From an uncultured Nitrospiraceae bacterium (lineage in GTDB: Bacteria; Nitrospirota; Thermodesulfovibrionia; Thermodesulfovibrionales; UBA6898), in NCBI GenBank assembly GCA_963811165.1, contig CAWEQH010000010.1, forward strand, positions 1,056,001 through 1,120,000: DNA of 64,000 bases, read 5' to 3'. This document shows positions 10,209 through 54,619 of the stretch, piece by piece. How positions within the stretch are numbered: position 1 is the stretch's first letter; each line of letters starts with the position of its first letter. The position numbers and the translations under genes are program-made. The notes beneath the pieces are model-generated. The model made no database searches and was not told the DNA's origin. It worked only from the letters and a program-made list of their open reading frames with translations.

Positions 10209-10340
10209 CTGGGTAAGGACGGCTTTTTCGCTCATTCTCGTCCCGAAAAGTTGGTAGCGGGACTCCGAGGCAATTTCTCGACTCGCCGTATGCGAGTCAA
10301 AACGAGAAATTGAAGCCGCTCAAATGCCGTCCTCACTCAG
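10209..10340 (-). repeat. structured dispersed element, copy A
   Basis: Reverse complement reads stem-TTTGAGCGG-stem-CCTCGGAG-hairpin-CGAGAATGAGCGA-stem, the same core as copies B-E. Confidence 0.8.
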
Positions 10341-10450
10341 TGGTCGCGTATAGGCTGTAAGGACTAGGTTGTTTTGCCTGCTGCATGCTGATACACTTTG
10401 TTCATGGAGCCGATAATCAGACATAGGATTTTTTATCCAAAAGGCTGCTC

Positions 10451-11836
10451 ATGAAAGAGTATGACGTCGTAGTTATCGGTTCCGGAGCTGCGCTTCATAT
10501 TGTCGAAAATGCCATGTCCCATGGGTTTTCTACGGCACTGATCGACCGGGGGCCTCTTGGCGGGACCTGCCTCAATGTGGGCTGCATACCGTCAAAGATG
10601 CTCATCTATCCCGGCGACAGGGTCATGGAGATCATGGATTCGGAGAAACTCGGCGTGACCGCAGAGATAAGGGATATCGACTTCAATGCGATCATGAAGA
10701 GGATGGTAAGGACGGTATCCAGGGGTGAAGCCCATATAAGGGAGGTCATCCGGCTGGCCGAGGAACTTGATTTCTACGAGGGACAGGGACATTTCATCGC
10801 CGAACGCACACTTGAGGTAAACGGCGAGCAGGTCAGGGGGAAGAGGATATTCATCGCCTCCGGGGTCAGACCCCAGGTACCCCCTATCCCGGGAATAGAC
10901 ATGATAGATTTTCTGACCAACGAGAGTCTGCTTCGTCTAAAGACGAGACCGGAAAGCCTTATCATTCTGGGGGGTGGCTACATAGCCGCGGAATATGCCC
11001 ATTTTTTTTCGGCCATGGGCAGCGCAGTTACCATACTTCAGAGAAACAAGAGGATCGTGCCTGACGAAGAGCCCGAGGTATCCGAGCTCCTGAGAAAAAA
11101 GCTCGGAGCGCGAATGAAGGTGTTTACGAATACGGAGGCGGTCTCGATAAGGAAATCGGGGCGGGACTGCGAAGTCACCGCCAGGGAGAGAGGGTCCGGC
11201 AAAGAAAGAAAATTCTCAGCCGAAAAGATCCTCCTTGCCAGCGGAAGGACCTCGAATGCCGATCTTTTGAGGGTCCAGGATACCGGGGTCGAGACAGATA
11301 AACGGAACTTCATAAAGGTAAACGAATATTTCGAGACGAGCACGAAAAATATATGGGCCTTCGGCGACGCGCTCGGGAAAAAGATGTTCAGACATGTTGC
11401 AAACAAAGAGGCGGCCGCCGTCTTTCGCAATGCCTTTCACAATTCGAAGGAAACGGTCGATTACCTCGCTGCGCCGCACGCGGTTTTTACCTGGCCCGAG
11501 ATCGCATCGGTCGGCCTCACCGAAGAAGAAGCGAGACGGCGGTACCATATCCATGATCTTCTTGTGGGCAGGGCAAACTATTCAGACGTTGCACGCGGAG
11601 AAGCGATGATGGAGGAGGAGGGTTTCTGTAAAGCGATCGTAAAAAAAGACGGGGACAAGATACTCGGGTTCCATATCATCGGCCCGCATGCCTCAATCCT
11701 TATCCAGGAGGTAATCATCGCAATGGCAAATAACCTGAACATCTGGGCAATGAATAAAGGTATGCATATCCATCCCTCTTTGTCCGAAGTGATCATGGCC
11801 GCCCTGGGCAACCTCGAAGAAGCCGGAGCAGCATAG
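10451..11836 (+). CDS. class-I pyridine nucleotide-disulfide oxidoreductase (dihydrolipoamide dehydrogenase/mycothione reductase-like)
   Basis: GGTCLNVGCIPSK redox disulfide, GGGYIAAE, HPSLSE. Confidence 0.88.
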   Translation: MKEYDVVVIGSGAALHIVENAMSHGFSTALIDRGPLGGTCLNVGCIPSKMLIYPGDRVMEIMDSEKLGVTAEIRDIDFNAIMKRMVRTVSRGEAHIREVIRLAEELDFYEGQGHFIAERTLEVNGEQVRGKRIFIASGVRPQVPPIPGIDMIDFLTNESLLRLKTRPESLIILGGGYIAAEYAHFFSAMGSAVTILQRNKRIVPDEEPEVSELLRKKLGARMKVFTNTEAVSIRKSGRDCEVTARERGSGKERKFSAEKILLASGRTSNADLLRVQDTGVETDKRNFIKVNEYFETSTKNIWAFGDALGKKMFRHVANKEAAAVFRNAFHNSKETVDYLAAPHAVFTWPEIASVGLTEEEARRRYHIHDLLVGRANYSDVARGEAMMEEEGFCKAIVKKDGDKILGFHIIGPHASILIQEVIIAMANNLNIWAMNKGMHIHPSLSEVIMAALGNLEEAGAA

Positions 11837-12015
11837 GTCTCTTCTTCCTGCCGGCGCTGCCGTTATTGAAAGTATTTTCTCGCCATTTCAAGCTTTTTTT
11901 CTGAAAGACTTCAAGGCTGCTCCCCCCTTCGAGGGCATGATGTCGAGGCCGTAAAATCGGACTTTTTCGGTTTTAATAGTTGCTTTAATTCATAATTATA
12001 TAGTTTCGAAATATC

Positions 12016-12044
12016 TTGACATTTGTTTTCCTTTTGCTTATCCT
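12016..12044 (+). promoter_or_regulatory. putative sigma70 promoter of the octaheme cytochrome operon
   Basis: TTGACA-N17-TATCCT. Confidence 0.5.
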
Positions 12045-12237
12045 ATGAAAAATAATTCTCAATTTCGGTGACAGGGGTTGATAATGCTCATAAGACATTT
12101 GTCCCAGTTTGCCAACAGTAGGCCTTCCACCAGGCTCAGCAGCCCGATGCAATCCGTAATTACCTTTCCCCATTTCTTAAGGAAATCCAGTTCATGAACT
12201 TTTGATCAAAAGTAAAAATAACTTTTAGGGGGTACCG

Positions 12238-13703
12238 ATGAAGGTATTAAAAGTGTCATTTCAGTTCGTTGCAGCAGTCATTTTGTCGTTGTTTCCTTTA
12301 GGCGCTTCGTCGAATGCGACTACCGACCATACAACACTGATAAAAGGGCCTTTCAAAAACGGGGAAGAAGTGACAAAGGCATGCCTTCAGTGTCACGAGA
12401 AACAGGCGGATGAAGTCATGCAGACCCCCCATTACAAATGGAAAGGAGTTCCGCGAACGGTAAAAGGCCTCGAAAACAGTAAGGAGGAATACGGCAAGGC
12501 AAATCTGGTCAATAACTTCTGCACCGACGTCGAGGGCGGCAGCAGGCCCTTCTGCATCAAATGTCATGCGGGCTACGGTTGGACGGAAAATGGCTCCCTG
12601 CCTGCGGAAAAGTCCAAGGTCGACTGTCTTGTGTGTCATGCGAAAGAAGGCAGATACAGAAAGGGCATCGGCGGAGAGGTAGACCAGGAGTTGTTCTCAA
12701 GGGGGAAAATGGACCTCGTAAAGGCGGCCCAGAGTGTAAGCCTGCCCAACCGGGACAACTGCGGGGTCTGCCATTTCTTCGGTGGGGGGGAGACGCGGTC
12801 AAGCATGGCGACCTGGATTCTACACTTAGTAAACCCAAGAAGGCGCATGACGTCCACATGGGCGGGCCGGCCGACATGAACTGTCAGGCATGTCATGTCT
12901 CTAAGGATCACAGGATCGCAGGGGCCTCTACCTTTTTGGCCACGAACGACGGAAGGGTCTCCTGCGAGGACTGCCACAGAGACCCGCACAAGGACTCTTC
13001 GGAGCATAAACTTCTCTTAAGACATTCAAAAACCGTCGCATGTCAGACATGCCACATCCCGGTCTTTGCAAAAGGACAGGCCACAAAGATGAGCTGGGAC
13101 TGGTCAGACGTCGGAAAGGACCTTGAGCCGACTGAGACATTCGGCAAAGAGACGTTTGCCAAACACAAAGGGACCTTTGTATGGGCCATGAATGTAACGC
13201 CGAGTTACGCATGGTATAACGGTAAAATCGAGAGATATCTTAAGGGAGATAAGATAAAAAACCCGAGCCAGACAGTCTATCTCTCACGGCCGGTCGGAAA
13301 CATAAAAGACGAAGACTCCAAAATCTATCCCTTCAAGATCCACAGGGGCAAACAGCCCATGGATTCACAGTATAAATATCTTTCGATTTTCCAGAATTAC
13401 GGCGGATTGTGGTCCCATTATAACTGGCAAAAGGCGCTGACGGACGGCGCAAAGGCCTCGGGTCTTCCCTATAGCGGCAAGTTCGAGTTCGTCTCCACCG
13501 CCTTCTACGGAAGTATAAACCATGAAGTCGTTCCCAAGGAACAGGCCCTGAAATGCGGGGACTGCCATTTTGGCAAAGACACGCGGCTTGACTGGAAGGC
13601 CCTCGGCTATGCCGGCGACCCAATGAGGGTAGGAGGAAGGTTTGAAAAAACATCGAAAGAAACTGCAGTCAGAAAGGTTTTAAAAAAAGCAGCCGTTAAA
13701 TAA
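12238..13703 (+). CDS. octaheme tetrathionate reductase (OTR)-family c-type cytochrome; -1 frameshift in the G-run at 12784-12790
   Basis: Signal peptide; 8 CxxCH across two frames (CLQCH, CIKCH, CLVCH, CGVCH | CQACH, CEDCH, CQTCH, CGDCH); GKANLVNNFC; GGGGDAVKHGDLD restored by one extra G. Confidence 0.88.
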
Positions 13704-13754
13704 AACAACAAAAGAGCGGCCTTAATTGCCGCTTCGGAAAAAAAGGAGGAAGGT

Positions 13755-14075
13755 ATGAAAAGAGTTTCAAGTGCAGCTACGGTCCTGGCCCTGATGATTT
13801 TCTGTCTGTCCATAGTCGCCGCTGTTGCGGTGGCGGAGGACAAAATCAGCGTAAAAGGCAAGATCAAGGACTATGACCTTGACGCCAAAACCGTGTTGGT
13901 CACGACCGACGACGGCAAAGACATGACGTTCGTTATAGAAAACGAAAAGGCCCTTCAAAAACTCGATGACAGACTCTTTAAGGGGGACGAGGTAAAGGTC
14001 AAATACACCGTTAAGGACGGCAAAAACTGCGTCAGGGAAAACAGCGACTTCAAAGGCACAAAACCAGGCTGCTGA
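13755..14075 (+). CDS. small secreted OB-fold-like protein with C-terminal GC (ExtJ-like)
   Basis: Signal peptide, beta-rich ...GDEVKVKY..., ends KPGC; GGAGG RBS. Confidence 0.65.
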   Translation: MKRVSSAATVLALMIFCLSIVAAVAVAEDKISVKGKIKDYDLDAKTVLVTTDDGKDMTFVIENEKALQKLDDRLFKGDEVKVKYTVKDGKNCVRENSDFKGTKPGC

Positions 14076-14104
14076 GCGGCCGAACGTTCCAAGGAGGTGT
14101 TCGA

Positions 14105-15695
14105 ATGAAAGTATTCCTTGCGGTACTGCTCTCTCTTTCTCTTTTTGTCCCGGTCTCTGCCTTTGCGGCCGATCAGGCAGAACTGATGAAAAAGATAGAC
14201 GACATGTCAAGGCAGCTACAGGAGCTGAAGCAGCAGATGCAGGACATGCAGAAAAAAGAGACCGCAGCAACGGAGAAGATCAAGAAGGTCGAAAAAAAGG
14301 TCGAAGACGGCCTCAAAGCCGTCGTGGCTTGAAATCGGCGGCGATTACAGGGGCAGGTATGACTACCTCAAAGGCACGGTCCACGACTACTACAGCTTTA
14401 CCCAGGTCCTGCCGTTTTTCCTCGGCATGCCCGGCGCACAGGCGCCGCAGCTGATTCAGGCCCACGACGTAAAGAACGATGCTCTTTTGACAAACCGTTT
14501 CGGGCTTAACCTCAAGGCAAGGGCGACTGAAGACATCACGGTAAAGGCAAGATTGCTGATGTACAAGGTTTGGGGACATGAGACGGACGAGCCTGTCGCA
14601 GGCCCCACGAGCGCATTTTTTGCCGACAAGTTTTTTGTCTTCGACGGCAATGTTTCTCATATCCCTGAAGACAATGTCCTCAGGGTAGACCAGGCATTTG
14701 CAACATGGTCAAATATTGGAAAACTCCCCGTATGGTTTTCTGTCGGCAGACGGCCCTCAACAGGAGGCGTCCCGACCAATTTAAGACAAAACGTCGAAAA
14801 AAGCGGAAGCTCGGGGGTGCCGGGGCTTCTTGTAGACTACGCATTCGACGGCGCGACGCTGGGCGTTGCCCCGGACATAGACGCCCTGCCCGGCGCATAT
14901 GCAAAAATCTGTTATGGAAGGGGCTTTGACGCGGGGTTCAAGTCCTCGGATAAGGGCCTCAATAATGTGGACTTCATGGGCGTAAATGTGGTCCCCTACG
15001 ACACCGACAATCTCCATGTCGAGCTTCAGTGGGACCGCGGGTTCCAGTTTTTCGCTTTTCCGGAGAACACGTTTAGTCCCTTATTCAACGCCAGCAATAC
15101 AAATCTCGGTGACATAGACCAGTACGGCGCACTCGTTATGGGGAAGATTAAAGACATCGGGATCGGCGACCTCAATCTTTTCGTAAACGGCGCCGTAAGC
15201 CGGTCACATCCCAACGATAACCTCTTTTCCATCGACACGCCTTCGGGACCCGTTCCCGTTGCCGGTCTCCTTTATGACGCACCGAATTTCGGCGGGGTAA
15301 AGGAAGGCCACACCGGCACGGCCCTTTATCTGGGCACGAGATATGATATTACGTCTACGGGCACCAAAATTGGTCTGGAATATAATTACGGCTCCAAGTA
15401 CTGGGTGGCCTTCACACCGGCCTCGGACGATATGTGGACAAGCAAGCTCGGGGCCCACGGAAATGTCTATGAGGCATATGTCATCCAGGAGATCAAAAGC
15501 AAGCCGATATCAAAGTACGGCAAGGCCTTCTTCAGGCTGGGGTATCAGTATTACGATTTCAACTACACAGGAAGCAACAACTGGGTGGGAGCGCCGAAAA
15601 GCATGTCGGATTTGAACAACCCAATGAACGCCCAGATGTTTGCACCTCTTGAGAAGGCCCATGACGTATATCTGACCTTTGAGGTAACGTTCTAA
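14105..15695 (+). CDS. DUF3373-family outer-membrane beta-barrel protein; +1 frameshift near 14310
   Basis: Signal peptide + coiled coil (14105-14310) continues in the next frame as KPSWLEIGGDYRGRYD...LLTNRFGLNL...SVGRRPST...; ends YLTFEVTF (C-terminal Phe). Confidence 0.8.
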
Positions 15696-15706
15696 CGTGC
15701 CGTTAC

Positions 15707-15738
15707 ACGCGCCGTGCGGCTGATGCCGCACGGCGCGT
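15707..15738. terminator. GC-rich hairpin terminator
   Basis: ACGCGCCGTGCGGC-TGAT-GCCGCACGGCGCGT, 14-bp perfect stem after the operon. Confidence 0.65.
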
Positions 15739-15864
15739 CATTTTGAACATATATGGCCCTTGAAATGTCTCTCCCTGCCCTGCCCTCTTCGCGGCCCCGC
15801 CTGCCATGGTCACATCCACCTATCGAACTAAAATCCAAATTATTTTTCCTGAATTTTCCCATCC

Positions 15865-18192
15865 TTACCACTTCAAAAAGAGCCTTCTGAGATTCCTCCA
15901 TTCAGCGGCAGGGCCGTCGGCCTTTTCGAGCACAAAATCACTATAGGTCTTTATAACGAGGCCGTCGTCCTTTTCGGTTATCTTGACCGCGCCGTCCCTG
16001 TCGGTCCTGAAAACCTTGACACCTGATAGTCTTTCAAGGACATCAGGACTCGGATGACCGAAGGAATTGTCCCTGCCCACCGAAATGACAGCGACAGAGG
16101 GAGAGACACTCGAAATAAACTCAGGACCGGCGGACGTCCTGCTGCCGTGATGGGGAACCTTAATTACATCTGCGCGAAGCCATTTCGTAAGATGGGAGAT
16201 GTCCCGCTCCGCTTCTCCCCCTGTGTCCCCTGCGAAAAGGAATGTCTTCTTTCGTCCCTTTATACTAAGCACAAGAGACGAGTTGTTTTCTTCTTCATAG
16301 TCATTGCCGTCGCGGGTGTAGAATTCCCTGTAGGGATGGAGCACGGTTATGCTGCAATCTCCGGCATCGATCATGTCTCCCCTTTCGAGCGTCCTCCGCT
16401 TTGCCTTCAGCCCCATCTCCTCAGGATACACGATCCGGCCATTGTCCCAGATTTCCCTTGTTTGGAACTTCTCCATAAGATAGCCGAGCCCGCCTGAGTG
16501 GTCGGGATGGACATGGCTTATGACGAGGGCATCTATCGACCGCATACCTTCGTAGGCAAGATATGCAGCCGTCTCCTTCCCGGTCCTTCCCGTATCGATG
16601 ACGATTACCCTTTTGTCGGGCAGCCGGACAACAGCGGAATCACCCTGCCCGACGTCAAGAAAAGTTACGCTCAATGCCCCCTTTTCAAAAGCGACCAGTG
16701 CGGCAAAAACGGCCAGCGGCAAAAACGGCAGAAGAAGCCATTTCTTCTTCCTGCCGAAAAAGAAATATGGGATAAAACCGAGGTAGAACACTATGCAAAG
16801 GACCGGAGGGAATGCGGGAAGTTTGACGTCCGCAAAAGGTACTTTCGCCAGGAGCTTGACAAGAGCGACCGAGGCATCTGCCGTCCACGACACAAAAGGG
16901 GCGAAGAGGTAGTGTCCTGTGAGCAGAAATGTAAAGGAGGATACCACCGCCAGCCCCACAAGGACAAAACCTATAAGCGGCGAGGCGATAAGGTTTGAAA
17001 GAGGCGAAATGAGGGAGAAGTAGTGGAAGTAAAAGGCCACAAGAGGGGCCGTGCCCAGTGACGCCGCCAGTGTAAGTGAAACGGATTGCTTCACGTGATG
17101 AACCAGTCTGTTTCCCTTATCTTCTTCTTCATCATCCCCCTTCTCCAGTGCAACGCCTATGAAGAACACTGCTATGAAGGACAGCCGAAAGGAAATGCTC
17201 TGGAGCACTTCGGGATTCCATAGCACCAAAAGACAGGCAGCTAAAAGGAGGGAATTCAGCCAAAACCCTTTTCTGCCCAGAAGGAGAGCAAGAAGGAAAA
17301 GGGTTATCATAACAAACGACCTGACCGCAGGAGGACTGGAACCCGAGATGCCCAGGTACAGGACCATTACCGGCATCGTAAGGACCGCAGCGGCCTGAGA
17401 CGGCGTTACGTAGATCGTCATCCTCTGCAACATTCCGTAAGGCAGTCTTTTTATCAAAAAGACGAACGTTCCGAACATCATAACGGAAAAAAGACCGAAG
17501 TGTGTACCGGAGATGCTGAGGATGTGCGCAAGCCCCGTCACGTTGAACGCCTCTTTCAGGTCATCTCCAAGGTAGGACGTCTCGCCGGTCGTCACCGACG
17601 CGATGAGGGCCGCCGAGTCCTTCCGGAACCTGCCCAAGACATACTCATTGATGCGTTTTCTCAATTTGTTGAAGTAATTCGTAATGGACGGGGAAGCGCG
17701 GCCTGCAACCCTCAGCTCCGCTGCCTCACCGTACAGCTTCACCTGCCCCCAGCCTCCCGGGTTTCTGCGCGACCTGTCCTTACCGGTCTTCAAAAGGACT
17801 TCGTACTCTTCGTCTGAGTCGGCCTCGAAGTCTGTAAAGACGGTTGCATCCTTATCCTGGAGGTCTTCGATCTCCGAGTCGGATTCATCTTCTAAGGCAG
17901 TGTCTATCGAGAAGGTTTTCGCATCGCTACCGGGAAACGGAGCATTACTGCTAGGCAGGAACCTCCCCGTCAGTATCAGTTTTTTGTTCCAGAGATCAAG
18001 TGTTTCCACCCCGGGCGAAAATCTTACATAGGCATAAGAAATACCTAGGACGACAATCAGGAGCAACACATATCTTTTCCTCCTCACGATGAGGACCGCG
18101 GCGGCCGCAAGGAGTATGGCGGATGTGATCGGGAAAAAACGGAACAAAGAAAAAAGCGCCGTCCCGTAGATAAAAGAAATAAAACCCATCAT
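15865..18192 (-). CDS. comEC: DNA uptake competence protein ComEC/Rec2
   Basis: GLAHILSISGTH, FLDVGQGDS, SHVHPDHSGG, KVPHHGS, NSFGHP. Confidence 0.95.
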   Translation of the reverse strand: MMGFISFIYGTALFSLFRFFPITSAILLAAAAVLIVRRKRYVLLLIVVLGISYAYVRFSPGVETLDLWNKKLILTGRFLPSSNAPFPGSDAKTFSIDTALEDESDSEIEDLQDKDATVFTDFEADSDEEYEVLLKTGKDRSRRNPGGWGQVKLYGEAAELRVAGRASPSITNYFNKLRKRINEYVLGRFRKDSAALIASVTTGETSYLGDDLKEAFNVTGLAHILSISGTHFGLFSVMMFGTFVFLIKRLPYGMLQRMTIYVTPSQAAAVLTMPVMVLYLGISGSSPPAVRSFVMITLFLLALLLGRKGFWLNSLLLAACLLVLWNPEVLQSISFRLSFIAVFFIGVALEKGDDEEEDKGNRLVHHVKQSVSLTLAASLGTAPLVAFYFHYFSLISPLSNLIASPLIGFVLVGLAVVSSFTFLLTGHYLFAPFVSWTADASVALVKLLAKVPFADVKLPAFPPVLCIVFYLGFIPYFFFGRKKKWLLLPFLPLAVFAALVAFEKGALSVTFLDVGQGDSAVVRLPDKRVIVIDTGRTGKETAAYLAYEGMRSIDALVISHVHPDHSGGLGYLMEKFQTREIWDNGRIVYPEEMGLKAKRRTLERGDMIDAGDCSITVLHPYREFYTRDGNDYEEENNSSLVLSIKGRKKTFLFAGDTGGEAERDISHLTKWLRADVIKVPHHGSRTSAGPEFISSVSPSVAVISVGRDNSFGHPSPDVLERLSGVKVFRTDRDGAVKITEKDDGLVIKTYSDFVLEKADGPAAEWRNLRRLFLKW

Positions 18193-18220
18193 CGCCGGAA
18201 CAAAACCCCTGACTCACATG

Positions 18221-18347
18221 ATAAGGCGGGATATGGTATTTGAGCGGTTTTTTTTGCCGATATTCCGAAAGTCTGTTTATTTGCGATGAAGAGGCAAAAG
18301 CCTCGGAGCGAAGCGAGAATGAGCGAAAATACTATATCCCGCCTTAT
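18221..18347 (+). repeat. structured dispersed element, copy B
   Basis: 21-bp terminal stem ATAAGGCGGGATATGGTATTT/AAATACTATATCCCGCCTTAT; core TGAGCGG...GCCTCGGAG-CGAAG-CGAGAATGAGCGA. Confidence 0.85.
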
Positions 18348-18443
18348 ATTTTGCACAGGTCCGCTGCGTCCCCCCATAAGACGATCCCCCGATCTACACA
18401 ATTTATTTCATCAGCCCAAAGCCATCGCAAAGGATTCAATCCA

Positions 18444-18557
18444 AGGGCAGGCATGGTATTGGAGCGACTTCTTTTATCCCGATGAATATCGGGAGAAAAG
18501 CCCTCGGAGATCCGCTTCCTGCGGATCGAGAATGAGCTACGATACTATGTCTGCCCT
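18444..18557 (+). repeat. structured dispersed element, copy C
   Basis: Terminal stem AGGGCAGGCATGGTAT/ATACTATGTCTGCCCT; core GGAGCGAC...CCCTCGGAG-ATCCGC/GCGGAT-CGAGAATGAGC. Confidence 0.85.
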
Positions 18558-18598
18558 ATTCCCATATTATCTCAACATTACCATCCCAATACCAAAGG

Positions 18599-19948
18599 TT
18601 ACTGCATCTTCTCCCGTATCACCTTCGAGATGTCCCGCCCCAGTTTCGTGATAAGCTTCTCGTCCTCCCCTTCAAGCATGACCCTTATCTTAGGCTCCGT
18701 ACCGGATGCCCTGACGAGCACCCTACCCCTGCTGCCGAGCTTTTTCTCAGCCGTTTCCACCGCGCTTTCGATATCGGGGACCGAACGGATATCCTGTTTT
18801 TTCTCGACCTCGACGTTCATAAGGACCTGGGGAAAAAGCTTGATCCTCGATGCCAGTTTAGAAAGCGGCGCATTACTGATTTTCATAAGACTTAGGACCT
18901 GGGCCGCCGTGATGGGTCCATCACCGGTTGTATTGTAATCCAGAAATATTATGTGGCCCGACTGTTCTCCGCCCATGTTAAAGCCGCCGTCGAGCATCTT
19001 TTCGACCACGTACCTGTCTCCCACCTGGGTCCTCAAGAGCCGGACGCCATGTTTTTCGAGGAACCTTTCAAGCCCTAGGTTGCTCATCACCGTTGCCACG
19101 ACCGTCTTCCCTTTCAAGCTGCCGGACCTGACCATGTCGGCTGCACACATGCCCATGATCCTGTCGCCGTCAACGGGCCTGCCCTTCTCGTCGCAAAGCA
19201 ACGTCCGGTCCCCGTCGCCGTCATGCGCGATCCCTATATCCGCCGTGTGTTCGATCACCGCCTTCTGCAGACCCGCCATATTTAGAGAACCGCAATCAAG
19301 ATTAATGTTGGTGCCGTCAGGCCTGTCGTTGAGCGAAATCACCTCGGCCCCTAGTTCACGCAATAGCCATGGCGTTGTCTTGTATGCCGCACCGTTTGCG
19401 CAGTCGACAACGATCTTCATCCCTTCAAGCGTAGTGCCCTTCGGGAGCGTTGACTTTATATATTCGATATACCTGCCGGTGGCGTCGTCGAGCCTGAAGG
19501 CCTTTCCGACCTCTTCACCTTTAGGCCTGAACTTTTCCAGGTGATCGTCCATCACAAGGTCCTCTATCCTCTTTTCGACCGAATCAGGAAGTTTGAAGCC
19601 GTCGTAAGAGAAGAACTTTATCCCGTTGTCCTGGAAAGGGTTGTGCGACGCAGAAATCACGATCCCGGCATCGATCCTCAGGGTCCTTGTGAGAAATGCG
19701 ATTCCGGGGGTCGGAAGCGGGCCTACCAGGGTCACATCCATGCCCATGGAGCAGATCCCCGACGTAAGGGCGCTTTCTATCATATATCCCGACAGCCGCG
19801 TGTCCTTGCCTATGAGCACCATATTCCTGCCGTGGAGTTCCTTACGGAGCACCGTTGCGGCCGCCATGCCTATCCTTAAGACGTTTTCAGGCTTCATCGG
19901 ATATTTATTGATCCGGCCCCTTATGCCGTCCGTGCCGAAGAGTCTCAT
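18599..19948 (-). CDS. glmM: phosphoglucosamine mutase
   Basis: LFGTDGIRG, ISASHNP, DGDGDR, GGEQSGH, RASGTEP. Confidence 0.97.
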   Translation of the reverse strand: MRLFGTDGIRGRINKYPMKPENVLRIGMAAATVLRKELHGRNMVLIGKDTRLSGYMIESALTSGICSMGMDVTLVGPLPTPGIAFLTRTLRIDAGIVISASHNPFQDNGIKFFSYDGFKLPDSVEKRIEDLVMDDHLEKFRPKGEEVGKAFRLDDATGRYIEYIKSTLPKGTTLEGMKIVVDCANGAAYKTTPWLLRELGAEVISLNDRPDGTNINLDCGSLNMAGLQKAVIEHTADIGIAHDGDGDRTLLCDEKGRPVDGDRIMGMCAADMVRSGSLKGKTVVATVMSNLGLERFLEKHGVRLLRTQVGDRYVVEKMLDGGFNMGGEQSGHIIFLDYNTTGDGPITAAQVLSLMKISNAPLSKLASRIKLFPQVLMNVEVEKKQDIRSVPDIESAVETAEKKLGSRGRVLVRASGTEPKIRVMLEGEDEKLITKLGRDISKVIREKMQ

Positions 19949-20592
19949 TTCCTTCCTCCTGCTATTACGACCGTGACCCTGACCTTCTCCCTTTCAGGCT
20001 TGACATTGGCGCCGGCCGCGTCTATATTCAGCTCCTGGGTCTGCGTAGAGTTTATTCCGGATATATCCATCTGGTCCGTCCCGATCTCGCTGATCTTCCT
20101 CACCTCGGTCTTGAGGCCCTGGATAACAATATTCTTCGGCTCCACATCGACAGTTTTCACATAATATCCGGGTGCCGGCGAGCCGGTTATCGAGGCCCTC
20201 ACCGGGACCGCCTTTGTGACCGTTTCGTCGAGCCTTACCCGGATGGTTGAAGGATCGATACTCGTTACCGACATCGCGTAGGGAAGTTTCACGTCGTCTT
20301 TGTTGATATGATAACTCCCCTCGCCCTTTCTGGCCTTACTCATATCGACCAATACCCTTATGTCGGAGGGTCTCAGACTCTTCATGATCCTGTCCTGCCC
20401 CTTCACCGTCACGTTCGCGGACTTCGCACTTGAGTTGACGATACCGAGACCGATCGGCACGTCCTTGAATTCGATCGGGACTTCGAAAGACACCTCCGAC
20501 TGTCCCTTCCATGTCACAAAGAGCCAAAGCAAAACCGCAATAAGGACCGCCGAAACCTTGAGCCCTAAATTTTCGAACAACAGCTTTCTCAT
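19945..20592 (-). CDS. cdaR: YbbR-domain diadenylate cyclase regulator
   Basis: MRKLLFENLGLKVSAVLIAVLLWLFV TM helix then YbbR repeats; between cdaA and glmM. Confidence 0.85.
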   Translation of the reverse strand: MRKLLFENLGLKVSAVLIAVLLWLFVTWKGQSEVSFEVPIEFKDVPIGLGIVNSSAKSANVTVKGQDRIMKSLRPSDIRVLVDMSKARKGEGSYHINKDDVKLPYAMSVTSIDPSTIRVRLDETVTKAVPVRASITGSPAPGYYVKTVDVEPKNIVIQGLKTEVRKISEIGTDQMDISGINSTQTQELNIDAAGANVKPEREKVRVTVVIAGGRK

Positions 20593-21356
20593 TTTTTCCC
20601 CTTCTGAGAAGAAAATACATCTGTTAGGAGGTCCCTCATCGTCCCCATATCGAGCTTGGTCTCTAACTTGCCATCCATGGCCATCGAGATAAAGCCCGTC
20701 TCCTCGGAAACGATGATCGCGATCGCGTCCGTTTCTTCGGTCAGTCCTATGCCCGCCCTGTGGCGCGTGCCCAGGGACTTGCTCAGCTCCGAACTGAGCG
20801 TGATCGGCAAAAAGCATCCGGCGGCGGCTATCCTGTTGCCCTTAATAATGACCGCCCCGTCGTGAATAGGAGACGTAGGATGAAAGATGCTGGCCAGCAA
20901 TTCCCTGGACACTTTTGCGTCTAAAGGCGTGCCGACCTCGATAAAGTCCTTGAGGCTCGTGTCCCGCTCGATGACGATGAGGGCGCCGATCTTTCTGTTG
21001 GCGAGCGATATTGAGGCCCTTACGATCTCTTCTAAGGACTTCAGTTCTTCGGCCTTCGTAAAGGTAAGAAACTGCGCCTCCCCTATATGGGCGAGAGCCC
21101 TCCGGATCTCGGGCTGAAACAGGACAATGATCGCGATAACGATCTGCGCCCAGAAACTCTGCACCAGCCAATCAATCGTATAGAGTTCAAGGTACCGTGA
21201 GGCCACCGAAGCCAGCAAAAGGATGCCAAGCCCTATCAGCATCTGCACGGCCTTCGTCCCCTTCAGGATAAGGAGCAGCCGGTAGAGGACCACCGACATC
21301 AGCGCGATATCGAGAAAATTAAGTATCCATCTGTGTTGTCTTAGAAGCTCTACCAT
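20589..21356 (-). CDS. cdaA: diadenylate cyclase (c-di-AMP synthase)
   Basis: Three N-terminal TMs, FQPEIRRAL, HDGA, GTRHRA motifs. Confidence 0.95.
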   Translation of the reverse strand: MVELLRQHRWILNFLDIALMSVVLYRLLLILKGTKAVQMLIGLGILLLASVASRYLELYTIDWLVQSFWAQIVIAIIVLFQPEIRRALAHIGEAQFLTFTKAEELKSLEEIVRASISLANRKIGALIVIERDTSLKDFIEVGTPLDAKVSRELLASIFHPTSPIHDGAVIIKGNRIAAAGCFLPITLSSELSKSLGTRHRAGIGLTEETDAIAIIVSEETGFISMAMDGKLETKLDMGTMRDLLTDVFSSQKGKK

Positions 21357-21490
21357 TTTCTACACGGGTCCCCCGGATATTGTTAAGTATCTAATTATAT
21401 ATCATGCAATATTAATTTTCCCGCGATATGAGGTAATGACCTCACTTTGTCGTATACTATTGTTATAATTTCCCCAGAGGAGCGGACTGA

Positions 21491-22255
21491 ATGAACGCCG
21501 TTGAGCTCTATAAGAAACTGCCGAAGAAAAACTGCGGTAAATGCAGCCTAAAGACATGCATGCCCTTTGCGCTTGCGGTGATCAAAGGTGATGCGGAGCT
21601 TGCCGAATGTCCCCTTCTCACCGGAGATGCGATAATTGAGATAGAGGGCTCCCTCAAGCGGTCGGACTGGCGTGAAGAATTGATCCTTAAACTGAGGGAA
21701 GAAATTAAGGGCATCGATTTCAGCGAAGTCGCGGAAGGGATCGGCGCCACCGTAAGAGACGGCGTACTCGTCCTCGACTGTTTCGGAAGGGAATTCAGGA
21801 TATCGCCTGACGGAGAAATAGCAGCCCAGGGGCGCATGACGCCCTGGATAAGAATCCTCGTTCTGCACTATGTCCGCACGGCAGGCAAAGGCGGCCTGAC
21901 GGGCAAGTACGTCTCTTACAGCGAGGTAAAGGGCGGAATGGTGAAGGCGTCCTCGTTTCAGAGGGATTGCGAGGAACCGCTCACGGAATTGTTCAAGAGA
22001 GATTTTGAAAAAACCGCGCTCATGTTGTCGAGGATGGGCACGAAGAAAAAAAAGGGTTTTCCGACAGAGCACGCATGGGAACTATACCTGCTCCCCAAGC
22101 TGCCCGTCACCGTCCTTTATTGGCCTCAGGAGGAAGAATTCCCGTCCAGGGTAAAGATACTCTTCGATTCTTCGGCTGACAGGTATCTTGACGCGGAGTC
22201 GCTCATATTCTTAGTCGAAGGGCTCGTCAAGAATATCGAGATGTCGCTGCACTGA
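21491..22255 (+). CDS. Fe-S domain + DUF3786 protein
   Basis: N-terminal LPKKNCGKC...TC...CP (AcsC-like Fe-S domain) followed by DUF3786-like region (LPKLPVTVLYW..EEEFP). Confidence 0.8.
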   Translation: MNAVELYKKLPKKNCGKCSLKTCMPFALAVIKGDAELAECPLLTGDAIIEIEGSLKRSDWREELILKLREEIKGIDFSEVAEGIGATVRDGVLVLDCFGREFRISPDGEIAAQGRMTPWIRILVLHYVRTAGKGGLTGKYVSYSEVKGGMVKASSFQRDCEEPLTELFKRDFEKTALMLSRMGTKKKKGFPTEHAWELYLLPKLPVTVLYWPQEEEFPSRVKILFDSSADRYLDAESLIFLVEGLVKNIEMSLH

Positions 22256-22274
22256 TTTCGTTTGTTGCGAGGCA

Positions 22275-22377
22275 GGGGGTGGTACTCGAACGGCTTCTCT
22301 TAACCCGATGAATATTGGGGGAAAAGCCCTCGGAGGGCTGACTTCGTCGGCCCGGCAATGATGAGAATACCGTCCCC
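22275..22377 (+). repeat. structured dispersed element, copy D (more diverged)
   Basis: GGGGGTGGTACTC/GAATACCGTCCCC stem; CCCGATGAATATTGGG hairpin as in copy C; CCCTCGGAG-GGCTGAC/GTCGGCC-CGGCAATGATGA. Confidence 0.75.
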
Positions 22378-22488
22378 ACGCACACCTCATAATCTTCTGA
22401 TGGCAGCTTATCTCGGAAGCTCCTAAATTGCTTTTATCACGGATTTCCGTTACATTTTATATGAGGCTGATCGGATGCCTCCCACCCT

Positions 22489-24109
22489 ATGGCCGGAATT
22501 CATTACAGGAAGAGATTTTTAAAAGGACTTTTAATAGCCCTCAGGATAGCAATCTCCTACAGGGTCGCGCATTTCTTGGCTCTCTTTCTACCGGCCGAAC
22601 GGAAGGCCGCCCGCCTCAAAAAACTCCACAGGAAAAACGCGGCGCTCATAAGAAAAAAAGCGCTTGAGATGAAGGGCGTGATGATCAAGGTCGGCCAGTT
22701 CCTGAGTTCGAGGATCGACTTCCTTCCGGACGAATACATAAGCGAGCTTTCCGAGCTTCAGGACCAGGTCCCGCCCCATGACTTTGATGAAATAAGGCAG
22801 CGGATAATCGATGAACTGGGTTCCGCACCCGAGGAGATCTTCTCCGAGTTCGAAAGGGAACCGCTTGCCGCGGCATCTCTTGGACAGGTGCACCGTGCCG
22901 TCCTCAAAGACGGGCGGGAGGCGGCCGTCAAGGTCCAGTACCCAGGGATAGAAAAAATTATCGAGACAGACATAAGGATGTTCGAGGTCCTGATAAATGT
23001 GATGCACGGCAGGATGGGCTGGATCGATCTGAGGGTATTGCATGAAGAGTTCTCGAGGGTTGTGCGCGCCGAGCTCGATTACGCCCAGGAGGGGAGGAAC
23101 GCCGAGAGGTTCAGGCAGAATTTCCTCGGGGACGAACGGGTTGTCATCCCCCGGGTATACTGGGAATTTTCGAGAGGCAAGGTCCTCACTCTCGAGTTTG
23201 TCGGGGGAATCAAGATATCTGAATGTGCAGTGATCAAGGCGTCGGGGACAGACTGCGGAGCACTGGTCAACCTCCTTGCAGAAACCTATGCCAAGATGAT
23301 CTTCGTCCACGGATTTTTCCATAGCGACCCCCACCCCGGAAATATCTTCGTCAGCAAGGGGCCGACGCTCGTCTTCGTCGACTTCGGGATGGTGCAGACG
23401 ATACCCGAGTCGACGAGGAGAAACCTGCGTCGGTACGCCAATGCCATCGTCGAAAACGATACGTCCGGCATCGTTGAGGCCCTTGAGAGCCTGGGGTTTC
23501 TTATCGAAGGCGCCGACTATAAAGCGATAGCGGACGTCACCCAGGACCTGATCGACAAGTACCGGTACAGCACCCCGGGGGAGCTGAAGTCCCTCACCAT
23601 AGACGATATAGGGGACGAGATCCATAACGTTCGCGGCGTCATCGATAACTTCCAGGTGCCGAACTATTTCATACTCCTTGGCAGGACGATCGGAATGCTA
23701 AACGGTATGGCGTTCAGGCTCAATCCCGAGGTAAACATCATAGAGATCGGCAAGCCCTACATTAAGGAGTTCTTCGCAGGCAGCCGCGAGGAGCAAATAA
23801 AGCGGGCATTCACTTCGGTCGAAGAAGAGATTTTGGGAACTCGTCGATCTCCCTTCACAGGCACAGGCGTTCCTCAAGAAGGCAAACAGGGGCGAGCTCT
23901 CCTTCAAGCTCGCAAAGTCCGAGATGCAGGGTATTACGGGCCAGCTCTCGTCCCTGGCCGACGTGATGCTCCTGGTGATCCTGACGGTGACCGCCTCTTC
24001 AGCAGGGCTCTTCTTCGCCCTCCTGGGGAACAAGGCGCCCTCGATCTTTGCCGCCGGCATGTCCCTTTTCCTCGGGCTTCTCTCCGTATTCAGACTAATG
24101 AGGCGATAG
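22489..24109 (+). CDS. ABC1/UbiB/AarF-family atypical kinase; +1 frameshift near 23830
   Basis: IKVGQFLS, LQDQVPP, AASLGQVH, AVKVQYP, HSDPHPGN, DFGM; the C-terminal two-TM tail lies in the 23924..24109 frame. Confidence 0.85.
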
Positions 24110-24847: not shown

Positions 24848-24872
24848 TTACAAGGGGCGATGCATGAGATCT

Positions 24873-44167: not shown

Positions 44168-44178
44168 GGTTCTTCGCG

Positions 44179-44319: not shown

Positions 44320-44658
44320 ATGAAGAAAGTTATTTTTATGGCAGTGTTAATAGTTTTAGGATTAGGCCTGTTTTGGGGCTGCGCCACAATGCGAACAGGG
44401 TCAGATCCCCGGTCTACAAGAATTGAAGGACCAATTATTGAGGACAGGATTGCCGCACTTCAAAGAAGAATTGATGATGGAAAAATCAACGGGCGATATC
44501 CCGGGACGGAAGGGAAAGCGTTGCAATTCAGACTGGACGCCATTCGGGGCGATTATTTACGGATGACAGAAGGAGGCAGATACATCACGCACGAGGAGAG
44601 AAGAGACATTTCGAGCCGGCTTGATTTGTTGGAAAAAGATCTACATCGGTCCCGGTAG
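44320..44658 (+). CDS. hypothetical lipoprotein
   Basis: MKKVIF...FWGC lipobox; helical body. Confidence 0.7.
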   Translation: MKKVIFMAVLIVLGLGLFWGCATMRTGSDPRSTRIEGPIIEDRIAALQRRIDDGKINGRYPGTEGKALQFRLDAIRGDYLRMTEGGRYITHEERRDISSRLDLLEKDLHRSR

Positions 44659-44800
44659 ACTTAATGGCAATCTTGTGGTGCTGATCAGAGTCATTCGGGG
44701 CCGCAAACCGTTCCGACGGATTAGACTGTTTTATAAATAAAAAATCAAAAGTCAAAAATCAGGGATGATCCAAGCGCAGGATAATTAAATCGCGCAGATG

Positions 44801-45850: not shown

Positions 45851-45908
45851 TTTTTTCTCTGATACAAGATGTTTTATTTATAGCTTATCATATTCCACTG
45901 CCGGCCTC

Positions 45909-48110: not shown

Positions 48111-48297
48111 TAAAAAATCCTATCACATATGGATGGGTCATGACAAATACCCGGTCTCCCTTTAATGCTTCAAGCCGGCATATAGTGAATACATAGCAAT
48201 GCGTTTCTGCAATTATCAGCTCGACCGACCGAGCCAGATGAGACTGACAAAAGGGAGGAATTTCGAGGCGGACTTTATACCCGGAAAATAAACGGGG

Positions 48298-49545: not shown

Positions 49546-49600
49546 TTCGTTTCCCTTCTATCCCCAGCTTCGCAAAAGCATTAGTCGAAGTCAAGACACT

Positions 49601-49631
49601 AAAAATAAAAAGGGGATATACCTATCCCCTT
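49601..49631 (-). terminator. hairpin/terminator downstream of pnp
   Basis: AAGGGGATA-N4-TATCCCCTT with A-tract on its left. Confidence 0.55.
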
Positions 49632-49658
49632 CGACCTATCGATAAAGCGGAAATTAAA

Positions 49659-51755: not shown

Positions 51756-51761
51756 TTTTTC

Positions 51762-52028
51762 CTATTTCCTGATTCCAAGCCGACTGATAATAGTATCGTA
51801 TCGCTCTTTGTTTGATGTTTTCAGATAGTCTAGCAACTTTCTCCTCTGGCCGACAAGCTTAAGCAGCCCCCTCCTGGAATGGTGATCCTTTGTATGAATC
51901 CTGAAGTGCTCGGTGAGATATCCTATCCTTTCACTCAGTATCGCGATCTGTACCTCCGGTGAACCGGTATCCTTTTCGTGGATCTTGAAATCACTAATGA
52001 TCTTCTGCTTGTTTTTTTCGATTCCCAT
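51762..52028 (-). CDS. rpsO: 30S ribosomal protein S15
   Basis: [19 protein letters not shown]. Confidence 0.97.
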
Positions 52029-52117
52029 CGAATCACCACCTTTCAATTATAAATTTTCGTGTCGTTAAGATTACCACAGGCCGCGCAGTTCTGTAAAGGT
52101 TACGGGCCGGGGCCGGC

Positions 52118-53770
52118 CTATTTCATTATCGCTCCCTCATTGGCCGAGCTGACGTACCTCGCATATCTTGCGAGATACCCCTTAGTGATCTTCGGCGCCG
52201 GCTTTTTCCATGTTTTCAGTCTCCTGCCGATTTCATCTTCCGTCAAGAGGACATCGAGGCCCCTGCGGGGAATATCGATGCGTATCAGGTCACCGTCTTT
52301 GACCACGGCAAGCGGCCCGCCTTCCATCGCCTCAGGTGAAATGTGCCCTATACAGGGCCCCCTCGTACCGCCTGAGAACCTCCCGTCGGTGATAAGCGCT
52401 ACCGATTCGCTAAGCCCCATGCCGGCTATCGCCGAGGTGGGCGACAGCATCTCCCGCATGCCCGGGCCGCCCTTGGGGCCTTCATACCGTATCACCACCA
52501 CATGGCCGGATTTTACCTTCCCCGCAAGTATCGACTTCATCGCCTCCTCTTCGGAATTGAATACTATGGCGGTGCCCTTGAACTTCATCATGTTTTTGCT
52601 GACCGCAGACTGTTTCACGACCGCCCCTCCCGGAGCAAGGTTGCCCTTAAGGACGACGATCCCGCCCTCTGCATGATGGGCGCGTTCCAGAGGCCTGATC
52701 ACGTCCTCATCGAATATCTCCGCTGCATCTGCTATCTCATATATGCTTCTGCCGCCGACCGTTATATTGTCGTGGAGCTTCTTTCTCAGCCTTTTGAGCA
52801 CCGCCGGGATGCCCCCGGCATAATCCAGGTCCTCCAGATAGTTCTTCCCGCCCGGCAGCATATCGGCGATGTGGGGTGTCTGAAGCGCAAGTCTGTCAAA
52901 TGCCTCAAGCGGAAGATCGATCCCTGCATCGTGGGCGATCGCGGGAATATGCAGGGTCGTGTTAGTGGAGCCGCCTAGGGCGAGATCGACCATGATGGCG
53001 TTTTCGAAAGCCCTCATGTTCATGATCTTCCTTGGCGTCACGTTCTTTTTCACAAGTTGCGTAATGAGACGCCCGCTTTCGAAGGCTATCCTCCTTTTCT
53101 TCGAAGATACCGCCAGTGCAGTAGCGCAGCCCTCTATACTCATGCCCAGCGCCTCGGTGACGCAGGCCATCGTGTTGGCGGTATACATACCCTGGCAGGA
53201 ACCTGCGCCGGGACAGGCGCACATCTCCAGTGCCTCCAGTTCCTCACTCCTGATGAGCCCCTTTTTGAACTTGCCGACCGCCTCGAAGGTGTCGCTCGTC
53301 AGGTTCAGCCTCCTGCCCTTATAATGCCCCGAAATCATCGGCCCCGCGGTCACCACAATCGAAGGGATATTCACCCTTCCCGCAGCCATGAGCATGCCGG
53401 GTGTGATCTTGTCGCAATTGGTAAGAAGTACGAGCCCGTCGAGCTTGTGTGCCTCGGCGACCGTCTCTACCATGTCGGCGATAAGTTCCCTTGAGGCAAG
53501 AGAATAATGCATCCCGCCGTGGCCCATGGCGATCCCGTCGCAAATGCCCGGGATACCGAAAAAAAACGGATACCCTCCCCCGGTATGCACTCCCTTTTCA
53601 ATGAACCTCTCGAGGTCCCTCATCCCGGAATGACCCGGTATCAGGTCGGTAAAACTCGTGGCAACACCGATAAAGGGTTTCCCGATTTCGCTCTTGGGAA
53701 GCCCCGTTGCGTAAAGCAATGCCCGGTGGGGCATGCGTTCAATGCCTTCTTTTATTATCTTGCTTCTCAT
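52118..53770 (-). CDS. ilvD: dihydroxy-acid dehydratase
   Basis: [50 protein letters not shown]. Confidence 0.97.
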
Positions 53771-53863
53771 ACCATAATCCTCCTAGATAGGCCATGTGAT
53801 GTTGACAACGTTACCTGAACCAGGTGTAAATAGTGTCTGTTTATATACTAAGATTTCATAATT

Positions 53864-53937
53864 CGTCATTCCACGACTTGATCGGGGAATCCAGTCTTCA
53901 GGGCCTCTGGATTGTCCGGTCAAGCCGGACAATGACA
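53864..53937. repeat. CGTC-type REP doublet (palindromic repeat)
   Basis: CGTCATTCC...GGAATCCAG...CTGGATTGTCCGGTCAAGCCGGACAATGAC; possible imperfect outer IR at 53831 and 53963. Confidence 0.7.
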
Positions 53938-53966
53938 AAATTGGACTTTATGCGTAGTCTCTAAAT

Positions 53967-53998
53967 AATCAGGGACGATGCCATGATCGTCCCTGATT
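53967..53998. terminator. hairpin downstream of DUF465 gene
   Basis: AATCAGGGACGAT-N6-ATCGTCCCTGATT. Confidence 0.55.
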
Positions 53999-54037
53999 CA
54001 CTGTGTTATGTATGTCGCTACGGCGGCCCTTTTTCCC

Positions 54038-54268
54038 TCAGCCTACCGGGTGGGCCTTTCTGAAGTCCCTGATGAACTCAGCCATCTTGTCTTTCTTCGC
54101 AAGCTTTTGCTTTTGGAGTTTCTTCCTCTCAACCTCTTCCTCAGGGGTAAGATAGACCTTCCTGTCCATCTCGGCAAGCGTCACGTCGAGGCCATGATGT
54201 TCCTCCAAAACCTTCTTGAACTCGCCGTTCTCTTTTTTCAGGTGTTCGATGATCTCCTGCTCTTTCAA
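54038..54268 (-). CDS. DUF465 (YdcH-like) coiled-coil protein
   Basis: EFKK..EEH..LD...LTPEEE.ERKKLQKQKL..KD; TTG start with GGAGGAG RBS. Confidence 0.85.
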   Translation of the reverse strand: MKEQEIIEHLKKENGEFKKVLEEHHGLDVTLAEMDRKVYLTPEEEVERKKLQKQKLAKKDKMAEFIRDFRKAHPVG

Positions 54269-54495
54269 ATTGTTCTCCTCCCTAAAAAAAATTTATTAGA
54301 ACCCTGGGCGTCGGCCGCCCCAAAGACTGTCTTCGGTTGAGAGGTTTTAAAAAAGAAAGGACTCGTGTCTTTCGGTAAGGGTGAAAGTATTTCTGAGAAC
54401 GTTGTTGTCTTTCTCTGCATGCCGTTATTTTAAGAATATACCTTTTCGGCAAAATTATCAATTCTCAAATCAGTCTGTAATCCGCGGTCGATTGC

Positions 54496-54619
54496 ATGAG
54501 AACGGCATCTGAGCGGCCACAGCCGCGCGTGTCGCATCACCGGGAAGGTGATGCGCGCCGGTGCCCCCGGAGGTCCGGCGCTTCGACGTACCGAGAATGA
54601 GCGATGATGCCGCTCCCAT
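54496..54619 (+). repeat. structured dispersed element, copy E
   Basis: ATGAGAACGGCATC/GATGCCGCTCCCAT stem; core TGAGCGG...CCCCGGAG...CGAGAATGAGCGA. Confidence 0.8.

Follow-up and report, generated by a model that had tools for sequence, protein, structure and literature searches.

A dispersed, gene-less family of three-way-junction elements in Nitrospirota and other bacterial phyla that may act as folded single-stranded DNA

Five intergenic stretches in a 64,000-nucleotide window (G000:C10:1056001-1120000) of the genome of an uncultured Nitrospiraceae bacterium belong to one family of repeats whose sequence is predicted to close into a three-way junction. The family is real, dispersed and gene-less; its members are about 130 bases long, uncatalogued, and placed between housekeeping genes in several phyla. 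From the structure, dynamics and exchange described below we infer a function at the DNA level, an enzyme, and its nicking: there is about an even chance that one strand folds as a single-stranded DNA (ssDNA) three-way junction, read by a putative trans-acting DNA-processing enzyme that would drive both insertion and conversion.

The window comes from a 3.66-Mb genome that is 95% complete (G000), and its gene setting is ordinary (lpdA, comEC, glmM, cdaA, a ubiB-like gene, ilvD and pnp). A covariance model trained on 50 diverse family members, applied to the window with filters off, finds five copies only, at 104, 100, 99, 70 and 69 bits, and the next best match reaches 19 bits. Since the five copies are part of the training set, the gap to the background is the informative part of these scores. 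All five stretches named in a preliminary description of the window are present with the shared layout given there. Genome-wide (3.66 Mb), the model yields 42 matches. Scanning for motifs plus pairing recovers 34 copies, against 0 when the genome is reversed, and half-profiles bring in further, degenerate copies as well as orphan halves (4 left, 2 right). The same description held that the stems differ in sequence yet keep pairing, and this is borne out. Over 50 sequences and 34 pairs, with kin that are not independent, 87.9% of cells are paired against 59.8% in shuffles, and 513 double changes are observed against 168 shuffled, a value that 0 of 500 shuffles reaches. Controls with slid partners are paired at 39-46%. 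The covariation is far above these controls, and the covariance-model search that had been proposed also leads to relatives in other phyla. Rfam has no match in the window at gathering score. With E up to 10, positions 10000-23000 give only chance matches to microRNA hairpins (E 2.5-6.5, on copies 2 and 3), and with E up to 1, 14 other loci give one small nucleolar RNA match only (E 0.71), in keeping with the earlier view that the core matches no hammerhead, twister, pistol, HDV or common riboswitch consensus. Full-text searches of the main text of openly accessible papers found no description of the family.

The element reads 5'-P1a-GAGC-GG-NTT-[P2]-CC-TCGGA-G-[P3]-C-GAGAATGA-GCGA-P1b-3', with three stems (P1, P2 and P3) joined by the segments J1, J2 and J3. 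A 27-nt core in three pieces and the NTT bulge are nearly invariant across phyla, while the three stems vary and covary. The sets of elements differ by analysis (50 aligned, 285 unique for P1 pairs, 333-336 in total, and 143 with both neighbours called). Conservation of J2 and J3 is partly fixed by the search patterns, but copies of the Candidate Phyla Radiation (CPR) found by the model still keep both. P1 pairing exceeds 0.85 up to position 18 and reaches chance level by 22; P2 spans 14-92 nt, with pairing that is best when it starts after the 3-nt NTT bulge, and P3 spans 5-46 nt. Copy 2 (18221-18347, plus strand; 100 bits) lies between comEC and glmM, antisense to both of these minus-strand genes, and has a 21-bp P1, a 53-nt P2 and a minimal P3. 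In its J1, GAGCGG (18242-18247, plus), the GC pairs with the GC of the final GCGA, and the GG with the CC of J2 (CCTCGGAG, 18301-18308, plus). The remaining GA and the final GA are a predicted tandem sheared G·A, and J1 is followed by the conserved 3-nt NTT bulge. The minimal P3, GCGAAGC (18308-18314, plus), is identical to a DNA mini-hairpin sequence, and J3 (CGAGAATGAGCGA, 18314-18326, plus) is the most conserved part. The linkers had been described as conserved and unpaired; the conservation stands, but part of them pairs. In the 50-sequence alignment, the two positions that join J1 to GCGA are G-C in 48/50 and C-G in 47/49 sequences, with one compensated A-T and two T-G. A GAAC/GTGA compensation in 6/335 copies and a TCGC/GCGA Watson-Crick replacement in 22/335 confirm the register, and therefore the flanking GA/GA is predicted to pair as tandem sheared G·A. 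J3 contains ATGAGCGA, the core of a solved DNA duplex with adjacent G:A pairs, going by a title in the reference list of PMC10085684.

The other window copies depart from this arrangement to varying degrees. Copy 1 (10208-10341, minus; 104 bits), in the divergent gap between an alpha/beta-hydrolase-like gene and lpdA, has three perfect core motifs, a 20-bp P1, a 45-nt P2 and a 22-nt P3. Copy 3 (18444-18557, plus; 99 bits) stands in tandem with copy 2, antisense to glmM, with a P1 of 18 bp, a P2 of 34 nt and a P3 of 17 nt. Copy 4 (22269-22383, plus; 69 bits) is a degenerate recombinant with an aberrant J3, in sense orientation to a DUF3786 gene and the ubiB-like gene. Copy 5 (54493-54622, plus; 70 bits), 24 nt from the stop codon of an opposite-strand peptidyl-prolyl isomerase gene, has an 18-bp P1, a 48-nt P2 and a 19-nt P3. 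The motif GAGCGG, once listed as common to all five, is found in copies 1 and 2, but copy 3 has GAGCGA in J1 and GAGCTA at the end of J3, copy 4 has GAACGG, and copy 5 reads CCCCGGAG in J2. Likewise P1, first put at 13-21 bp, measures 18-21 bp in copies 1, 2, 3 and 5. Beyond the window, other palindromes of the repetitive extragenic palindrome (REP) type are inserted in P2 and P3 at fixed steps, including CCTC^GGAG and CGA^GAATG; the former, in J2, is interrupted in this way in at least one other G000 copy. Bulges on the 5' side of P2, about one turn out, are subtype-specific (GCATGGT 13, GTATT 11). A universal P2 bulge was considered and found unconvincing (96 on the 5' side and 61 on the 3' side of 364). 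CPR copies (e.g. L512, L515, L527) carry two conserved, lineage-specific extras, GCATGGT as a bulge in P2 and CGCTGG as the tip of P3, and copies from Desulfobacterota and Gemmatimonadota have GGATG-type tips in place of these extras.

One strand is the favoured folding strand. The P1 pairs of 285 unique elements comprise 3551 Watson-Crick pairs, 406 G·T wobbles and 82 A·C mismatches. The G·T excess is kept where the folding strand is the G-poor one (44 against 12, in 25 copies), and thus runs against the local mutational skew. This wobble asymmetry, together with the covariation and the maintenance of pairing in place, supports the selected, strand-specific fold that had been proposed. Among unique P2 and P3 sequences, 65 GNA triloops are found on the folding strand and 12 on the other; the further tips include 24 GNRA, 10 GNYA and 1 UUCG, and the majority are of other kinds. 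The minimal P3 is CGNAG in 41/48 cases, with all four bases represented at N. As DNA, GCGNAGC forms a mini-hairpin of very high stability, with a far weaker counterpart in RNA, as part of PMC13037366 states. The loop types thus favour ssDNA rather than RNA. Folding energies alone do not tell DNA from RNA, and two window copies fold poorly: copy 4 has a DNA z-score of -1.1, and copy 5 is weak on the named strand (z -2.2 for DNA) and better on the other (z -3.7).

The folding strand might instead act as RNA, in the form of a structured antisense RNA, a new self-cleaving ribozyme or a protein-bound kink-junction, which we regard as unlikely. Small ribozymes show such a pattern, a junction that is invariant across phyla while its stems covary freely, and the G·U wobbles confined to one strand, the antisense bias described below and the GNRA tips would all suit a transcript; sense copies in operons would then be purged because they would cut or stop the mRNA. 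The subtype-specific P2 bulges could make tertiary contacts, and J2/J3 can be drawn by eye as k-turn-like C-UCG-GA-G / C-GA-G, a k-turn being a 3-nt bulge followed by tandem G·A, A·G. Against this, Rfam gives no match, and the hammerhead core pattern (CUGANGA ... GAAA) is met in 1/333 elements, on the opposite strand, so the earlier failure to match the core to hammerhead or other known ribozymes holds. The triloops are GNA with N free, and UUCG occurs once. Furthermore, an antisense promoter would be required at each of up to 100 scattered copies, whereas one weak sigma-70-like site near copies 2 and 3 lies on the wrong strand and at chance level. No reverse transcriptase or ribozyme-linked gene recurs nearby, and the element was not found in viral contigs or plasmids.

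A very improbable variant places the activity on the opposite strand, as a permuted twister-sister-like ribozyme in the 3' region of mRNAs. The reverse complement of J3 reads GCUCAU, and that strand is usually the mRNA one; in a portion of PMC5660989, GCUCAU is the long strand of the twister-sister catalytic loop (G59-U64). The partner strand in minimal twister-sister-like ribozymes is GCNAG according to a section of PMC11620745, and the CCTCGCAG variant of the element (7/335) yields it. However, the partner is CCGAG in 328/335 copies, which lacks the guanine that contacts the scissile phosphate. The flanking stems are out of register, there is no SL4 loop, the Rfam models do not match, and the wobble and loop asymmetries favour the other strand.

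The position of the elements relative to genes is biased. Crude open-reading-frame (ORF) calls place genes on both sides of 143 unique elements, of which 76 are antisense, 27 sense, 30 convergent and 10 divergent; most are within 60 nt of a stop codon. The mixed orientation noted at first is thus true of the window and does not extend to the family. G000 has 23 antisense against 8 sense copies, and 30/40 fold on the G-poor strand. The discordant cases divide 5:5, and effects of transcription and replication are therefore inseparable. The near-whole CPR genome G320 shows 8 antisense against 2 sense.

The copies are in motion. G000 was compared with its sister genome G002 (genes 83.5% identical) over 553 kb around the copies of G002 and in control regions. 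Within the genus, copies are gained and lost, and at fixed sites copies exchange their interiors and whole subtypes: a site may be filled in one genome only, half-deleted, occupied by another subtype, or hold another P2 or P3 inside the same P1. The ortholog of copy 1 in G002 keeps the left half only, through a deletion at a GAAG microhomology, and the gap orthologous to that of copy 2 is empty of the element in both G002 and G001. The left flank and left P1 arm of copy 4 match G002:C11, while its right P1 arm and right flank match G002:C39. A reciprocal product lies at G000:C4:512678-512809, the crossover falls at J3/inner P1b (the 3' side of J3), and both products have a damaged J3. Going by these flanks, copy 4 is one product of a reciprocal chromosome exchange between two copies, in a direction that takes G002 as ancestral, and it is degenerate because it is recombinant. 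Other rearranged sites were also seen. Of two back-to-back element pairs in G000, one (G000:C10:1123046-1123374 against L440) has its two subtypes in swapped order in G002, and the other (G000:C9:36486-36816 against L455) has lost most of one partner there. A second structured repeat of about 170 bp, directly upstream of some copies, is gained and lost together with them (L432 in G002:C1, upstream of ileS; L435; L452; and G000:C10 at about 203300-203460); the ends of one of its copies read ATGCAGGAACATG and CATGCTCCTGCAT. At L355 (G182:C17), an inverted right half with its flank replaces the left half, a fold-back that is either a hairpin-primed duplication or an assembly artefact.

Within a genome, divergence runs 2-6 times faster in P1 than in the interior; the stem nevertheless remains paired, at orthologous sites too. 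In six other genomes (3-9 copies each), P1 differs at 0.43-0.64 per base and P2 at 0.10-0.23, with P1 76-97% paired. Past P1 position 7, copies agree at a near-chance level, while pairing remains at about 0.9 up to position 20. Owing to the coexistence of several P2 subtypes, the contrast is weak in G000 and G002 (P1 0.61/0.58 against P2 0.58/0.41 of pair positions). Across seven orthologous pairs, one of them of doubtful orthology, P1 shows 11 compensated double changes against 1.1 simulated, and 14 pair-breaking changes against 25. Conversion of the interior between conserved cores, while P1 ages in place, is the simplest reading of these data, and one P1 arm may be rewritten by templating. 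An origin of P1 from the target or from a resident terminator was rejected: empty sites have no arm, the family consensus of P1 is kept in G320 and in Nitrospirota, and the wobbles favour the non-mRNA strand.

Some copies travel inside MITEs, miniature transposable elements bounded by inverted repeats. In G182, the element lies within a 195-bp shell with 12-bp terminal repeats and target duplications of about 8 bp; a 63-bp empty shell exists, and the same shell holds other palindromic cargo in G181. This MITE family (L472-L501; terminal repeat GTAACTATCCAG) has 194 and 157 ends in G182 and G181, lengths of 63-207 bp, duplications of about 8 bp and several unrelated palindromic cargos; no autonomous insertion sequence (IS) was identified for it. 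The one long GTAACTATCCAG-bounded stretch, considered as an autonomous form, holds rimO and was discarded. Unrelated shells surround copies in G180, G183, G469 and a minority of Nitrospirota. One could therefore imagine the element as passive cargo of DDE-moved MITEs, with its pairing due to template-switch correction of quasi-palindromes and its core conserved by recent spread and conversion. The G182 and G181 shells and those of the three other genomes and of some Nitrospirota suit such a history, as does the fast paired change in P1, which fits templated copying. We give it only a slim chance. An outer exact inverted repeat of at least 12 bases accompanies 19/336 elements (control 11/1665), and the shells are mutually unrelated while the core is the same. 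Moreover, template switching would produce no one-strand preference for G·T over A·C, nor would it hold unpaired bases identical from Nitrospirota to Patescibacteria. The MITE hitch-hiking explains some bursts, not the conservation of the core. At the ends of P1, a target-site duplication of at least 5 bases is found at 14/333 elements against 1.6% in shuffled pairs, and the copies of the window are not classical MITEs and have no target duplication, as first described.

The distribution is wide and patchy. By covariance model, eight genomes of the genus hold 0, 0, 1, 6, 32, 33, 38 and 101 copies, and both zero-copy genomes are 98-100% complete; the exact pattern is present in 16/41 relatives. 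A scan of GTDB genomes gives at least 130 loci, chiefly in Nitrospirota and also in Desulfobacterota, Planctomycetota, Latescibacterota, Gemmatimonadota, Patescibacteria and Elusimicrobia, among which some phylum assignments may be binning errors. A metagenome scan gives at least 123 loci. Model searches in which the top candidates per genome were scored find the element in 16/141 genomes of a CPR class, 6/141 of the phylum of G182, and 7/31 relatives of G183, which itself has at least 105 copies. Near-identical copies occur in G182-G184, and G320 (940 kb) holds 15. A phage or plasmid origin was rejected, with 0 copies in viral contigs and 0 in plasmids.

Could the host keep these sequences for its own use? 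They might be domesticated leading-strand-template signals, acting for example in re-priming or replication restart or as protein-loading hairpins that resist the single-stranded-DNA-binding protein (SSB). In favour, orthologous sites keep their pairing, 30/40 G000 copies have the G-poor strand as the folding strand, and no partner gene is seen. Mini-hairpins are also present at the priming sites of phages and plasmids and are poor binders of SSB, as passages of PMC13037366 have it. However, two of the eight genus genomes, near-complete as they are, and 25/41 relatives by exact pattern live without the element. Its sites are quickly gained, lost and overwritten, its spacing is irregular, and its presence across phyla is scattered, all of which makes host selection for such a signal quite unlikely.

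A partner gene was sought around the copies. Pfam was run on 133 of the 216 neighbours without a homologue in G000 and on 7 of its own genes, the remainder being judged by clustering and by eye; these 140 neighbours include one IS3 helix-turn-helix, one PIN and Smr domains, none of them recurrent. Clustering of neighbours gives no partner, and the near-whole CPR carrier G320 yields none either, with genome-wide searches confined to Y1 and GIY-YIG and not extended to reverse transcriptase, DUF559, HNH or IS91/Rep-type HUH families. The notion of an HUH/RAYT substrate fares poorly: the Y1 transposase (PF01797) was not found in 8/16 carriers (G000, G001, G183, G189, G238, G314, G320, G339), is present but non-adjacent in the eight others, and 0 of the 32 Y1 loci checked (of 33 fetched) hold the element. 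None of the 33 GIY-YIG loci checked (of 38 fetched, from 15 carrier genomes searched) is flanked on both sides. Over 437 loci, the suggestion that copies flank a TnpA(REP)/RAYT, GIY-YIG or reverse transcriptase gene finds no recurrent case. An autonomous form with its gene inside P2 was also rejected, as the orphan halves (4 left, 2 right) bracket no nameable mobile gene. Since the genomes are incomplete metagenome-assembled genomes and repeats break assemblies, an autonomous locus could be missing. Small GIY-YIG genes are common in the carriers: at L029 (G001:C19:504-794), a 96-aa Ssn-like gene lies between inverted CGTC-type repeats, 0.3 kb from one copy, and the 0.94-Mb CPR genome G320 (L616-L674) has 11 small GIY-YIG genes, with several kinds of REP-like palindromes nested in P2.

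For the ssDNA reading, a cycle can be proposed. The enzyme would recognize the junction itself, with its tandem sheared G·A capping P1 and P3 and its GNA mini-hairpin tips, whenever the strand becomes exposed or takes an extruded, cruciform shape. A nick close to the junction would set off copying into new gaps directly behind stop codons. It would also trigger gene conversion between copies, by which the interior is homogenised, each P1 remaining at its own locus with its pairing preserved. Selection would act against copies that lie on the mRNA-like strand or the lagging-strand template, leaving the antisense, lagging-sequence bias. Several observations weigh against the ssDNA reading. No nuclease, HUH or reverse-transcriptase family recurs beside the elements in the 437 loci; a single copy lies 0.3-0.7 kb from each of three small GIY-YIG genes, none of which is flanked, and G314 has copies and no small GIY-YIG. 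Comparison of orthologous gaps gives no clean empty site that shows the insertion chemistry, and in relatives of the CPR genomes and of G339 it is uninformative since the genomes are too distant. Element sites are syntenic with G002 in 28/31 cases and other gaps in 105/127; breaks are thus not in excess (3/31 against 22/127), and the copies are not general rearrangement hot spots, an idea that was dropped. Of the 11 compensated changes in P1, 6 come from the doubtful pair, the other six pairs giving 5. Most tips are neither GNA nor GNRA, and the 24 GNRA are also favoured by RNA. Loop types and sheared G·A cannot decisively separate DNA from RNA, a point also made in part of PMC5737381, and gene orientation comes from the crude ORF calls among kin that are not independent.

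A bolder proposal, and a quite doubtful one, is that the junction is a natural catalytic or guide structure of ssDNA (or RNA) that promotes its own nicking and copying through host repair enzymes, with no dedicated gene. It would have crossed at least six phyla, rewriting or swapping its stems and seeding rearrangements. If so, it would be the first natural three-way-junction DNA of its kind, and might explain ERIC-like movement. To our knowledge, most natural folded-ssDNA signals are simple hairpins (REP, attC, IS200 ends). A more complex one would be rare, in line with a passage of PMC5737381. Here, opposite to what is seen in MITEs, a branched core is near-invariant from Nitrospirota to Patescibacteria and the stems can be swapped for one another. 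Because the core is short, it can be synthesised, and the question of DNA or RNA, and of a protein that binds or cuts it, can thus be tested directly. A sequence-specific enzyme for branched ssDNA, if there is one, would form a new class of tool beside the Ssn nucleases, and the outcome would inform the question of how ERIC and other repeats that lack genes spread. If there is no activity, what remains is a repeat family absent from catalogues, one that remodels the DNA between genes and disrupts assemblies of uncultured bacteria from groundwater and sediment.

Two further features of the window stand apart from the family. The C-terminal part only of an ISNCY-family transposase (model positions 147-363 of 368) is encoded at 924-1640 on the minus strand. 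A perfect GC-rich hairpin at 15700-15745, right after the ORF at 14427-15695, has a weak match to Rfam and to the covariance model and looks like a separate palindrome or a terminator.

Among known systems, the ERIC/IRU repeats of Enterobacteriaceae come to mind by their size of about 127 bp; they have TA ends and an RNase E effect (in part of PMC3184786). Like the element, they are intergenic, often just 3' of genes and stop codons, and their mover is not known. However, ERIC is a long, imperfect, unbranched hairpin with conserved terminal repeats, whereas the element is branched, its terminal stem is the most variable part, and TA is found at both ends in 0/333. One ERIC copy, found through a published primer, has GA-GC..GT-GA at the base of its hairpin and a core that ends in TGAGCGA. 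The covariance model does not match this copy at E up to 10, and its ordered-motif likeness (5 mismatches) is equalled by 35/1000 shuffles, so kinship with ERIC is only a lead. Small self-cleaving ribozymes share the three-way junction, the invariant core and the exchangeable stems, but the catalytic cores of hammerhead and twister-sister are not met and the loops of the element are DNA-type. RAYT acts on REP as folded ssDNA. GTAG-REP/REPIN sequences are likewise extragenic palindromes after stop codons, patchy between relatives (for REPs, see the overview in PMC3733652; PMC12306157 and PMC13521548 also bear on the known families). The element differs from them in having no adjacent Y1 gene, being three-armed and being five times longer, and GTAG occurs in 5 (5') and 7 (3') of 333 against a background of 1.1% per 10-nt window. 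Bacterial MITEs (RUP, Correia/NEMIS, IS-derived shells) have conserved termini and duplications, which the element itself lacks; they belong to the shells around it in G182 and similar genomes, some Desulfobacterota among them. The Ssn GIY-YIG nucleases act on Neisseria NTS/dRS3, a strand-specific folded ssDNA motif with conserved bases outside its stem, and cut at a distance (sections of PMC11893778). The reverse strand of the element also has TCATTC, as in the Ssn-related motif (SRM). However, the published SRM pattern is found in 0/333 on either strand, the CGTC tag is at background, and the repeats that flank Ssn-like genes in carriers are CGTC-type ones of their own, not the element. The element fails the defining tests of the REP/SRM and ERIC repeats, yet it is to these that it is closest in behaviour, and Ssn/NTS provides the best working model, by analogy, for how it could be read.

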